64,000 nt of DNA from a virus: positions 1-64,000 of the IMG/VR virus record IMGVR_UViG_3300048839_000196; one strand, given 5' to 3'. Positions within the stretch are counted from its first letter, which is position 1, and each line of letters opens with the position of its first letter. Positions 37,644-49,127 of the stretch are shown here, piece after piece. The notes under the pieces were generated by a model. That model searched no databases. It saw only the letters and a program-made list of their open reading frames with translations, and had not been told where the DNA came from. Both the position numbers and the translations under genes were made by a program.

Positions 37644-38134
37644 AGCACACTTTCTGAGGCAAAGAAGAGCGCCTGCTTTGATAATAACTTATTTAGGTGG
37701 TCGAGCGCAGTAGGCTTGAGTTCATCGCTCAAACTATCGACGTACCTGCGCGCCTCGATCTCAGAGATGGCGAGCTTGCCGGACACATTTGACAAGACAT
37801 AGATCAAGTGCTGATTCATGTCTTCTTCAGATGCGATTTCTTCCTCTCCCTCCAGTAGGAAGCCCATCGCCCTGCTAACAGCCATTGTTTCTGCGGCTGA
37901 GTAGGCGGAGGTGTCCTTGATGCCTGAAATTTCCTCCTTAAAGTACACCATCTTGTGCCCTGTCGCGGAGAACAAAACTCCATCACCGGGGTCAGTGATT
38001 TTGACCTTGGCTTTGGCTAAGACATAATCACCAATGATCTGGACTTCGGTATCTATGGCGTAGTACGCATTTAGGCTGGCGCACAATTCATGGAATCGCT
38101 TACGGCGATCTGCGAACGTTTCTCTTTTTAACAT
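37640..38134 (-). CDS. Putative single-strand annealing protein (Rad52/Sak-like)
   Basis: ATGH...TSA..AAETMAVSRAMGF motif; coupled to the exonuclease; ATG 38134 preferred. Confidence 0.6.
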   Translation of the reverse strand: MLKRETFADRRKRFHELCASLNAYYAIDTEVQIIGDYVLAKAKVKITDPGDGVLFSATGHKMVYFKEEISGIKDTSAYSAAETMAVSRAMGFLLEGEEEIASEEDMNQHLIYVLSNVSGKLAISEIEARRYVDSLSDELKPTALDHLNKLLSKQALFFASESVL

Positions 38135-38399
38135 GGTATTGTTTTTGCTTTGACATGGCGAGATAAATGATGGACTTCGTAAGGTCATGGAGCAGGCATC
38201 CTTGCCAGTCCACCTGTCTAACCTCCGTGGTTGTTTCACTGGAGAATAAACCTTTTGGTGGGGTCGTTTGAATCCCTGTCTTCACAACAAACGCATCCAG
38301 AATGGATGGGTATGTCGTAATTAGGAGTTTCTTCGCATCCTCAATTGGGATGCGAAGATCTCCAAGTACAATAGTGTTATGCCTGAGCTCAGCCTTCAT
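38100..38399 (-). CDS. Hypothetical protein
   Basis: First ORF after the promoter at 38415-38445. Confidence 0.55.
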   Translation of the reverse strand: MKAELRHNTIVLGDLRIPIEDAKKLLITTYPSILDAFVVKTGIQTTPPKGLFSSETTTEVRQVDWQGCLLHDLTKSIIYLAMSKQKQYHVKKRNVRRSP

Positions 38400-38414
38400 C
38401 TGATTTATTTCTTA

Positions 38415-38445
38415 CAAAGGTAGTGTTTTGTGCCGAGAAAAGCAA
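38415..38445 (-). promoter_or_regulatory. Bacteroidota sigma-A-type promoter
   Basis: TTG-N20-TACCTTTG driving the recombination/replication operon. Confidence 0.75.
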
Positions 38446-38465
38446 GAGGTGCGTGTATTTTTTTA

Positions 38466-38532
38466 CGCATAACTTTAGCTTTGTGTATATGCGCCTATGC
38501 GGCGCACATCGCAAATGCTGGAGTTAGCAGCA
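38466..38532. repeat. attC-like hairpin site (short)
   Basis: CGCATAAC...imperfect inverted repeat with extrahelical bases...GTTAGCAGCA. Confidence 0.65.
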
Positions 38533-38535
38533 ACC

Positions 38536-38847
38536 TTAGCGGACACTGTCTAACCATTCAAAATCTTCTTTTGTACCATATTCCCAATCGTGGGACAAAA
38601 CCTTCGGTTTGTAATTCAAATCAAGCAGACACATCACAAGGTTTAAAACAAAACCTTCTGCGTATTGACCACTTACACCAAATGAGCCACTTACTCTTAT
38701 GTAATGTGGGTTATCAAAATTCACATCACAAACAGGTAATCCAGCTAAACCTTGTTTATTAAACTTTGACAAATTAACCATTGCCGTATCAAAATCATTT
38801 TGACTAATCGGCTTTTCTTTACTTGCTATATAAAAAGAATATCCCAT
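38536..38847 (-). CDS. Cassette-borne hypothetical protein (103 aa)
   Basis: ATG 38847 (MGYSFYIASKEK...) lies close to one core site and the stop lies 3 nt from the other; AT-richer than the flanks. Confidence 0.7.
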   Translation of the reverse strand: MGYSFYIASKEKPISQNDFDTAMVNLSKFNKQGLAGLPVCDVNFDNPHYIRVSGSFGVSGQYAEGFVLNLVMCLLDLNYKPKVLSHDWEYGTKEDFEWLDSVR

Positions 38848-38857
38848 AATAAAAGGC

Positions 38858-38991
38858 TGCTGCCAACACCTGCTTTGCAAAAAAGGGGCAGACGGATGTA
38901 AGTCAGCGTTTGTTTATAAATCAACTTTTGTAGTTATGCCAAGCGAAGTGCAATAAATCCCCTTCTTCGCAAAGCATTGTAACGTTATGCG
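38858..38991. repeat. attC-like hairpin site (long)
   Basis: TGCTGCCAAC-acc-TGCTTTGC-AAAAAAGGGG...CCCCTTCTT-c-GCAAAGCA-ttgtaac-GTTATGCG. Confidence 0.7.
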
Positions 38992-39058
38992 AAAATAATT
39001 TGCATTAACCAGTTAAAAAATCAGCCACAATCTCTGGTGACTAAGTATAGATTCATGG

Positions 39059-40204
39059 CTATTTATTTATCTCGTCATCAAATAATCCCTCCATACTCTC
39101 AAGAATGCGTGCATCCCGGCTGCCAGCTCTGCCAGTAACGATCTCATTGTACCCGTAAAGCGCCTTCGCCGTTTCATTGAAGGCAAAGTCCTTTACGAAT
39201 GATGCGCGCTGTGTCACCGGGTCAACGTAGAACTCGCGTAAAGTTTTGATGTCATCGTGCCCGGTGTATAAGGCAGCTATAGTCTCAAGACTCATACCCA
39301 TTGCTGCGTAGTAAGTTGCGCCTGACCTGCGCAGTAGGTGAGCAGCACGCGAGTATCTAGGGATGCTTATGTAAGAAGGCTCCCCCTTGAATGATACTGT
39401 CTTGATCGTTGCATCCGCACCAAAAGCAGTAGCCAGTGCTTTCCTAACGTCATGCACAAAGCGCCTTGACCTCGGATCGCCAGACACACAGGGCGTATCG
39501 AACTTCAGGAGGTACTTTGACTCCAAGTTCGGATCGCTCGGATCGTGCCCGAAGTATTTGAAGATGCGCGTCATCAGAGCGAAAGGCACAGGTGTGCTCA
39601 TCCGTTTCTTTGTCTTTTCTGTAATGCGGGTGATCCAGTACGTCCTCCCATCTTTGGATAACTCTACATCGCCGACCCTCAAGCTGACAAGATCATTGAC
39701 CCGCCAGCAGGTTATGAGTGCCAGCTTGGTGTTGATACTGGCTGAGCTGGTGTTTGGGAGTTGCAGGATTTTTTCTACCTGCTCTACACTCAAGGCAACC
39801 ACCCGATCTTTCGGACGGATCTTTGTCTTAAAGAAATCGGGTACAGGTATCTGAAGTTTCACCCGCTTGAAGTTTCGCCAGTTCAGGAACACAACCAAGT
39901 TGGTTCTATGTTGATTGATTGTGCTGTGTTGCAGCCCCTCAATTGTATCAAGGAAATCCCGGAAGCCAAGAAAGAAATCTTCGAGCCACTGTCCCTTATC
40001 AAGGCGCTCTTGTGGTGAGCGGTTTACGGTGAAATCATAGTCGAACAGATCGAAATCTTCGATAAGTTCAGCCTGCATGTACGCCAGCATCTTGTGGTAT
40101 GTGCTTTGCCTATTGGTAGCTGTACTCGACGTGACGCGATTGCCGGTTTTTTGGTCGTCGCTCCACGCTTTCATTTGTTCAAGGAACATAAGTTTACTAT
40201 TCAT
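39059..40204 (-). CDS. Tyrosine recombinase/integrase (Bacteroidota phage-integrase type)
   Basis: Catalytic R (TCWRVND), K (TEKT), HxxR (HLLRRS), H (TGH) and Y (REFY); N-terminal SAM-like region. Confidence 0.88.
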   Translation of the reverse strand: MNSKLMFLEQMKAWSDDQKTGNRVTSSTATNRQSTYHKMLAYMQAELIEDFDLFDYDFTVNRSPQERLDKGQWLEDFFLGFRDFLDTIEGLQHSTINQHRTNLVVFLNWRNFKRVKLQIPVPDFFKTKIRPKDRVVALSVEQVEKILQLPNTSSASINTKLALITCWRVNDLVSLRVGDVELSKDGRTYWITRITEKTKKRMSTPVPFALMTRIFKYFGHDPSDPNLESKYLLKFDTPCVSGDPRSRRFVHDVRKALATAFGADATIKTVSFKGEPSYISIPRYSRAAHLLRRSGATYYAAMGMSLETIAALYTGHDDIKTLREFYVDPVTQRASFVKDFAFNETAKALYGYNEIVTGRAGSRDARILESMEGLFDDEINK

Positions 40205-48514: not shown

Positions 48515-49127
48515 ATGCTTTTGTTTATTGGTATAACTAAACTTTCGTTGCTGTGACTAAAGGTTTAGTTGTGTAACTAAAGTTTTAGTTATACTCCATA
48601 GGTGCACCCTACCATAAGTATTTTTAATTCCTACTAAAAAGATAGGAATATCTTTTTTTATTACCTTTATATAACTTCTCCACAAAGTTAGTCTATGTAC
48701 AAACCAATGAACACGCGCAAAAAGAACTGTTTAACTGAATTGTATTGCAGTGGAGTATATTTTTCTCATCGTCGCAAGGCCAAAAAACGGAAATTTGTAG
48801 GTGTGCCCGGACGAGAATCCGCAAAGCCCAACGCGAGCGACACCCGCCCGATCCATAGATCCGCTCCCACTCCCCATTCGATGTAACCCCTGCAAGAATC
48901 TTCAAAAATCTCCCCAACAAAATTCTTCGCCAAAAACAAAAGCGGCGCCGTCACATCCCTGTAACAAGCGCCGCCCTAACGACCAACCTAAATTCCAACC
49001 TAATTACCAGCTATCCTCCACCGAGTCGGCGGATCATACTCGTGATCTACGATTATCTGCGGTGGCCGTGCTGACATCCAGATCTTGAGCATGAGGGTGT
49101 AGCACACCACTGCAAATAAAAATGAGA

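Follow-up and report, generated by a model that had tools for sequence, protein, structure and literature searches.

How does a single small gene come to lie, in a phage genome, between two hairpins whose outer halves pair better with each other than with their own partners? This is the question raised by the locus at 38466-40204 of the stretch analysed here (hereafter the window: the first 64 kb of IMG/VR record IMGVR_UViG_3300048839_000196, a phage genome of 73,882 bp that is complete by CheckV). Integrons are the textbook bacterial device for single-gene capture, with a chemistry for which the integron integrase, IntI, is considered necessary. The original prediction, made from the letters of the window, read the locus as an integron-type gene cassette lying next to a phage tyrosine integrase, and all of the motifs, the open reading frame (ORF) and the integrase that it named were located as claimed. 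Our results support its central proposal, namely that a cassette was inserted at G^TT (the caret marks the point of exchange) into a resident attC-like hairpin and that the swapped boxes are the scar of this event. Two further proposals, that the cassette was captured from a host and, as one of two options for the enzyme, that the neighbouring integrase is the catalyst, were not borne out.

The cassette (38524-38984, plus strand) is 461 bp long and runs from the TT of a first GTTA to the G of a second, these GTTA repeats (38523-38526 and 38984-38987) being the stretch common to both partners of the exchange. Close copies, 92-98% identical to it and with flanks unlike those of the window, were found in a 10.3-kb stretch of a 64-kb metagenome contig (L007), in a 35.9-kb freshwater contig (X3) and in short contigs from a viral metagenome (X4), the last two coming from two public sequencing runs. 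L007 matches the window at 38522-38988, with 92% identity, and nowhere else, the alignment breaking at ..ATAAC^GTTA.. and ..GCTAAC^T..; X3 matches at 38523-38987 with 10 differences in 465 and X4 at 38523-38989 with 18 differences, and in both of them the letters on either side are unlike those of the window. Similarity thus ends within GTTA at 38523-38526 and 38984-38989, where a G^TT crossover would place it, and the half-boxes at the two ends are reciprocally complementary. With the window included, the cassette stands in at least four unrelated contexts and, judged from these alignments, the 461-bp unit is a discrete mobile unit whose borders fall within the 4-base GTTA.

The boxes in question are CGCATAAC at 38466-38473 and GTTATGCG at 38984-38991 on the one hand, and GTTAGCAGCA at 38523-38532 and TGCTGCCAAC at 38858-38867 on the other. 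Either hairpin by itself is modest and unremarkable: hairpin 1 (38466-38532) folds with -15.4 kcal/mol and a z-score of -2.2, and hairpin 2 is an 18-nt inverted repeat with 89% identity (38871-38888 and 38959-38976) around a 70-nt loop. The cross-pairing between them is far beyond chance. When the cassette was removed in silico, by joining 38455-38523 to 38985-39000, the result was an 85-nt, near-perfect palindromic hairpin of -23.1 kcal/mol with a z-score of -8.1, and when 38524-38984 was closed into a circle in silico, a 144-nt hairpin of -24.6 kcal/mol with a z-score of -4.2 was formed. The reciprocal pairing described in the original prediction is consequently real, and its single mismatch (9/10) is private to the window copy: position 38864 is C in the window only and T in X3, X4 and L007, where box pairing is 10/10.

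Laid out along the plus strand, the resident site, or pad (38456-38523), contains the left arm, the loop and most of the right arm of hairpin 1, with CGCATAAC as its R''-like box and G 38523 as the crossover base. The right end split off from the palindrome, TTATGCGAAAATAAT, now lies at 38985-38999; it is the exact complement of 38466-38473 and its pairing runs on into an A/T run. The R' half-box belonging to the cassette, TTAGCAGCAACCT (38524-38536), pairs with 38854-38867 in the circle and now completes the stem of hairpin 1; past the stop codon it is conserved in L004, L005, L007 and L008. The attC-like site of the cassette as inserted, hairpin 2 (38854-38991), is recognized by its inverted repeat and by covariation, and consists of R'' (AGGCTGCTGCCAAC, 38854-38867), the spacer ACCT, L'' (38872-38888), the 70-nt loop, L' (38959-38975), the spacer ATTGTAAC and G 38984, followed by the TTATGCG of the pad. 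In the circular form AGGCTGCTGCCAAC pairs with GTTAGCAGCAACCT and 12 of the 14 R-box positions are paired; both stems contain bulges. A reading of the pad as an intrinsic terminator was rejected, since neither hairpin is followed by a run of T on either strand. So was a third site, the end at GGCATAAC (38376-38383) of a "cassette B" devoid of an ORF, because that end falls inside the neighbouring gene ORF99, which is conserved in relatives, and because the pad pairs far better with the flank on the integrase side.

Which of the two hairpins came with the cassette had been left open, and the comparison with other copies settles it. Besides the close copies there are more distant ones, at 66-82% protein identity (L005/L008, L006 and L004), and hairpin 2 is inherited together with the ORF in six contexts (L007, X3, X4, L005, L006 and L004), with a different downstream hairpin each time. 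Since homology extends over all copies for the hairpin ahead of the ORF and never for the one behind it, the hairpin that moves with the gene is hairpin 2, and hairpin 1 is the resident one. The same copies show that hairpin 2 has homologues beyond the window. Read in the direction of the ORF, a unit follows the ..TAAC of the previous one and consists of the hairpin, GTTA with a box, the ORF and a box with TAAC. The two boxes that enclose the ORF, one ahead of its start codon and one past its stop codon, are complementary and vary together between copies, the R-box pairs being GCTGC/GCAGC in the window, CTACTGC/GCAGTAG in L005 and CGGCACATAAC/GTTAGGTGCC in L006. In circular-form sites from five homologous cassettes, 10-13 of 14 R-box positions are complementary (z-scores of -3.0 to -4.3), and in the L stem RNAalifold found, on five homologous copies, 14 pairs, 10 of them with compensatory changes.

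Units of this kind also occur in arrays. In L004-L006 the hairpin downstream of the ORF heads the next unit, with two cassettes in succession in L006. At least five sites with chain-complementary boxes, read by eye, lie in the first 1.9 kb of a 202-kb virus record (G003), and all of the ORFs there are on the same strand; a stem-grammar scan of this locus gave 16 hits against 2.4 in shuffled sequences, and four of the array sites pass it. The scan also recovers hairpin 2 and the L005 and L006 sites and misses the disrupted pad, and it has a high background in the window phage, where 3 hits compare with 1.3 in shuffled sequence. An energy-ranked scan for AAC...GTT hairpins was non-discriminating, long GC-rich coding stretches ranking first.

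The borders, the reciprocal boxes, the presence of one cassette in several contexts and the arrays in other phage-like contigs are observations; a circular intermediate, folded-strand chemistry and an enzyme are what we infer from them. The explanation that we favour, and hold to be probable as a whole, is that an integron-like cassette was inserted at G^TT into a resident palindrome by an enzyme acting in trans. In the circle, the cassette ends AGGCTGCTGCCAAC and GTTAGCAGCAACCT would close a long hairpin site of attC type (R''-L''-loop-L'-R'). The resident 85-nt palindrome would have lain between the integrase gene and the promoter of the recombination and replication operon, and a site-specific tyrosine recombinase would exchange strands at G^TT between the cassette site and the R' arm of this palindrome. 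The exchange would open the circle and leave each hairpin with the outer half-box of the other. The cassette would in this way place its own hairpin before its own gene, and it could also land at simple ..G^TTA.. sites with little or no hairpin. The enzyme most likely comes from the host or from a co-infecting phage, and would be either an integron integrase or an Xer-like recombinase of the kind found at variable regions of flavobacterial phages; the neighbouring integrase is probably not the catalyst.

Several findings weigh against this explanation. No recombinase is tied to the cassette sites, and no protein scores above the integron-integrase cut-off (265 bits) in a profile search of the records G001, G002 and G003. 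The ORF is antisense to the polarity of a classical attC site, the hairpin here heading the gene, and pairing in the R boxes spans 10-14 of 14 positions, about twice the classical 7 bp. The pad is a nearly continuous duplex that lacks the unpaired spacer of a classical attC, and it may be something else, such as an att site or a regulatory palindrome, that merely served as a target. An Rfam scan of 38000-39400 at E<=10 returned only chance matches to microRNAs and small RNAs. Finally, none of the searched sequencing runs contains the phage (shares of at most 0.11, from the cassette only), so that they give no view of an empty allele, an excised circle or polymorphism.

Compared with the cassettes of integrons, the likeness is extensive. 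Here, too, a small single-gene unit carries one imperfect hairpin of the form R''(..AAC)-L''-loop-L'-R'(GTT..), R'' pairs with R' and L'' with L' in the circular form, with covariation, the crossover is at G^TT, sites in arrays take one outer half-box from their neighbour, and the arrays hold unrelated small ORFs. Site length is in or near the attC range (~43-122 nt from AAC to GTT here), with a longer spacer on the R' side, and the palindrome of the resident site is of attC and not of attI type. The departures are as clear: the cassettes are in phage genomes, no IntI was found in the records searched, nor an attI site or Pc promoter, for which there is no intI gene as an anchor, and the layout of ORF followed by attC on the sense strand is not seen, the ORF being antisense to the attC top strand because the crossover is at the end of the hairpin far from its ORF. 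An integron-type mechanism is supported. Membership in the integron family proper is not, since there is no IntI, which a complete integron would have, and cassette polarity is inverted.

With two attC-like sites 330 bp apart (attC-like by fold and boxes) and no IntI, the locus is a candidate for a cluster of attC sites without an integrase (CALIN). The sections of Qi et al. 2023 (Front Microbiol; PMC9892861) used here describe attC clusters without integrase in 17 phages, one of them a Polaribacter phage, and report that IntI1 recombines five of six phage attC sites tested, and in the sections used from the IntegronFinder 2.0 paper (PMC9024848) complete integrons are rare in Bacteroidetes. 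As in those phage CALINs, there are at least two attC-type sites without IntI in a phage, with small genes of unknown or counter-defence function; their sites rest on IntegronFinder calls and IntI1 assays, and the present ones on sequence and fold. Phage-borne attC sites have, then, already been published, while one cassette across several phage contexts, a rebuilt empty site and a hairpin-first layout are not in the sections of these two papers on which we drew.

The first alternative to be weighed, which we consider unlikely, is that the neighbouring integrase is itself the cassette recombinase and docks on the 85-nt palindrome, which lies 61-67 bp past the stop codon of its gene, the whole forming a self-contained, integron-like platform with a non-IntI enzyme. 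The integrase gene (39059-40204, minus strand; 381 aa, tyrosine type, PF00589 at 8e-11, phrog_1) adjoins the site, is transcribed toward it and ends 67 bp from it, and, according to a profile search, the 73.9-kb phage encodes no other tyrosine recombinase. The curated model that the enzyme matches best is of the Xer/integron-integrase type and not an arm-binding phage integrase. The original prediction had doubted that this enzyme is an IntI, and rightly so, as it has no match to the integron-integrase model TIGR02249 at E<=0.01 and its best NCBIfam match, XerA_Arch, reaches 43 bits against a cut-off of 220; going by that match, it is an Xer-like "simple" recombinase. The Polaribacter phages described below lend the proposal some further weight, in that a 4.1-kb block of ten genes ends in ..GCT^AAC 47 nt from an Xer-like integrase gene, so that genes for enzymes other than IntI can edge variable regions.

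Catalysis by this integrase nevertheless found no positive support. Three other cassette contexts were seen without a recombinase: a profile search found no tyrosine recombinase in G003 (202 kb) or in contig G002:C7, and the 10.3-kb stretch of L007 has no ORF long enough for one, by ORF size only. A profile search for IntI itself found none in the three cassette-bearing records (74, 22 and 202 kb). The integrase family is also tiny, with 18 representatives at E<=1e-3, and 5 further clusters below 1e-18, among 1.84 billion proteins. In a large protein collection its one homologue (P0058, 63% identity) is on a 6-kb contig; it has no sequence match in the PDB, and no relative was found in IMG/VR with single-sequence or two-sequence queries. 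The similarity to the Polaribacter-phage integrase and to a Bacteroidia Xer-like protein is generic only, and the cassette lies 3' of the gene here, whereas in the Polaribacter phages the variable block is 5'.

Two IMG/VR relatives of the integrase, L029 and L030, are 28-29% identical to it and syntenic, with the gene order integrase, small membrane ORF, homologue of ORF99, 155-aa ORF and RecE-like gene (43% identity). At the equivalent place they have neither cassette nor palindrome, nor any significant hairpin, and the gap from the integrase to the next gene is ~100 nt as against ~660 nt in the window phage. Palindrome and cassette would hence both be additions in the lineage of the window phage and, going by these gene orders, the integrase family as a whole is not tied to palindrome or cassette sites. 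Where the window phage has the palindrome and the cassette, the two relatives have the small hydrophobic ORF (~36-61 aa; 5020-5130 in L029 and 4992-5177 in L030).

A broader version of the same idea, to which we give as little credence, is that hairpin-headed cassettes form an exchange network of their own among unrelated Bacteroidota-type phages (74-kb temperate, >200-kb and others) that is run by non-IntI tyrosine recombinases, and that in the window a rare-family integrase docks on the 85-nt palindrome, as a self-contained analogue of the integron.

The Polaribacter phages Freya_1 to Freya_10 (MT732463-72; genomes of 43,978 to 48,920 bp), whose integrases match the Bacteroidia Xer-like protein by tblastn, offer a comparison for such exchange; the protein itself had no match in IMG/VR. 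Ten small hypothetical genes in Freya_10 (L031, MT732472.1, 1-4147), 4,097 bp in all, are without match in Freya_1, and the border of this block is at ..GTTGCT^AAC, 47 nt before the gene for the 271-aa Xer-like integrase. From isolate to isolate among the ten, genome size changes by steps of 0.3-2.3 kb. These differences support the general notion that such phages gain and lose blocks of cassette size next to non-IntI recombinases. The likeness to the window is in cassette-sized differences between otherwise identical phages and in the border ..CTAAC; the difference is that the Freya block is 5' of the 271-aa Xer-like integrase, and here a single cassette is 3' of an unrelated 381-aa enzyme.

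A second alternative is a non-autonomous element of the IS200/IS605 type, similar to the palindrome-associated transposable elements (PATEs); a Y1 HUH transposase would transfer it in single-stranded form and insert it 3' of TAAC. The borders are at first sight compatible with it: in the direction of the ORF every copy directly follows ..TAAC and has ..TAAC as its own end, the target is not duplicated outside the shared core, terminal inverted repeats are absent, and a large subterminal hairpin is present at one end. Dependence on a hairpin and insertion beside a fixed tetranucleotide are likewise common to both. The second subterminal hairpin of such elements is, however, missing. There is one hairpin per unit, and the right end, 13 nt past the stop codon, pairs instead with the box beyond that hairpin and covaries with it. 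Paired, covarying end boxes and head-to-tail arrays of different cassettes with chain-complementary boxes fit an integron and not a transposon. Among the phage proteins scanned there was also no match to a transposase family, although no dedicated search for Y1 transposases was made. We regard this reading as very improbable.

The weakest alternative, an ordinary phage "moron" acquired by homologous or illegitimate recombination, with promoter or terminator hairpins and a coincidental box match, could draw on the AT-richness of the gene (GC of 0.41 against ~0.50 for the phage) and on the facts that small accessory phage genes with their own regulatory hairpins are common and that shuffling mediated by promoter early stem-loops in T4-type phages is a precedent, but it is already contradicted by the border data (four contexts without shared flanks, breaks within the same 4 bases), and the z-score of the rebuilt palindrome, the covarying boxes and the lack of a T run after either hairpin make it scarcely credible.

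Every long context of the cassette family is phage-like: in contig G002:C7, although it is binned with a Bacteroidia metagenome-assembled genome, genes for a family-A DNA polymerase, a helicase and a methyltransferase have PHROG matches, a PurZ-type enzyme and further PHROG families are encoded in G003, and L007 has PHROG matches as well. A sample of 400 other genomes from the phylum of G002 yielded no member of the cassette ORF family. Since the long contexts are phage-like and these 400 genomes are without the ORF family, "host cassettes", as the original prediction called them, are not what the data show.

The cassette gene itself, P0001 (38536-38847, minus strand), encodes 103 aa. It has 54 homologues with 53-98% identity in a large protein collection, no Pfam, PHROG or NCBIfam family match, and no tblastn match in 50,697 phage records. 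Its AlphaFold2 model (predicted local distance difference test, pLDDT, of 95.8) has a ferredoxin-like alpha/beta fold, and a protein-atlas search and three fold searches returned only generic ferredoxin-like matches, among them ZipA-C, YajQ and CdiI, with a best Z of 7.3. Because it is conserved, well folded, without known relatives and present in phage after phage, P0001 is a reasonable candidate for a function in host takeover or counter-defence.

What is at stake is that the scar logic used for integrons can be applied here to one cassette, which has at least four contexts, borders that agree within 4 bases and an empty site open to reconstruction, in a setting that differs from the textbook in being a phage genome, in having the gene behind the hairpin and in having no IntI in sight. 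If phages do trade accessory genes in this manner, genes would be passing between unrelated phages by a route that annotation pipelines miss, and the pad together with the circular cassette would be a directly testable pair of substrates with which to find the enzyme.

Some details of the distant copies deserve mention. The last array site of G003 (L025, G003:C1, 1776-1905) ends in the same 8 bases as the window junction (..AAC G^TTATGCG; window 38984-38991). The flank on the gene strand is ..GCA TAA C^ in both G003 and the window, with a stop codon inside the target, and ..GTA TAA C^ in L007. The agreement may point to (A)TAAC^G as a favoured docking sequence, or it may be chance, at about 1 in 256 given TAAC. 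The stretches that bear cassettes (L004/L010, L005/L008, L006 and L011) very often lie where a contig ends (at position 146 in one of 202 kb and position 280 in one of 22 kb, or on contigs of 1-3 kb), a pattern that would follow if populations were mixed in their cassette content and assemblies broke for that reason.

Contigs of G002 (C4, C8, C28, C31, C51 and others) contain at least eight short frames whose match to the integron-integrase/Xer model is confined to its last 55-60 residues; several of these frames lie at the end of a contig, some have stop codons, and in contig C9 a 361-aa Xer-like gene is cut off by the contig end. These scattered frames may represent a repeated element that breaks the assembly. 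One of the contigs, C28, which starts with a recombinase C-terminus, was considered and discarded, as it leads into a gene that reads like a restriction enzyme and has no obvious hairpin-headed cassettes.

As for the wider neighbourhood, family and profile matches in the window phage include a terminase, a portal protein, virion proteins, a primase-helicase and a RecE-like exonuclease, and the cassette locus sits between the integrase gene and an operon with genes for recombination and replication. No relative of the phage around the cassette site was found in the GenBank phage collection, and the single IMG/VR relative of the replication module stops 215 bp short of the cassette region. The phage side of the site is bordered by ORF99 (38100-38445, minus strand, with its ATG at 38399), a homologue of which follows the integrase in L029 and L030. 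The consensus for promoters of the Bacteroidota type is TTG/TAnnTTTG, and a promoter-like motif that fits it, TTG-N20-TAccTTTG at ~38412-38445, would lie between ORF99 and the pad. Inside ORF99, ~40 nt past its start, there is a perfect 11-bp inverted repeat, TCTTCGCATCC / GGATGCGAAGA, with a 7-nt loop (38330-38358), which could be an operator, a recombinase-binding site or a product of chance. Another palindromic AAC...GTT hairpin, at 48535-48590 in the AT-rich early region, passes the stem scan on both strands and is probably unrelated to the cassette sites.

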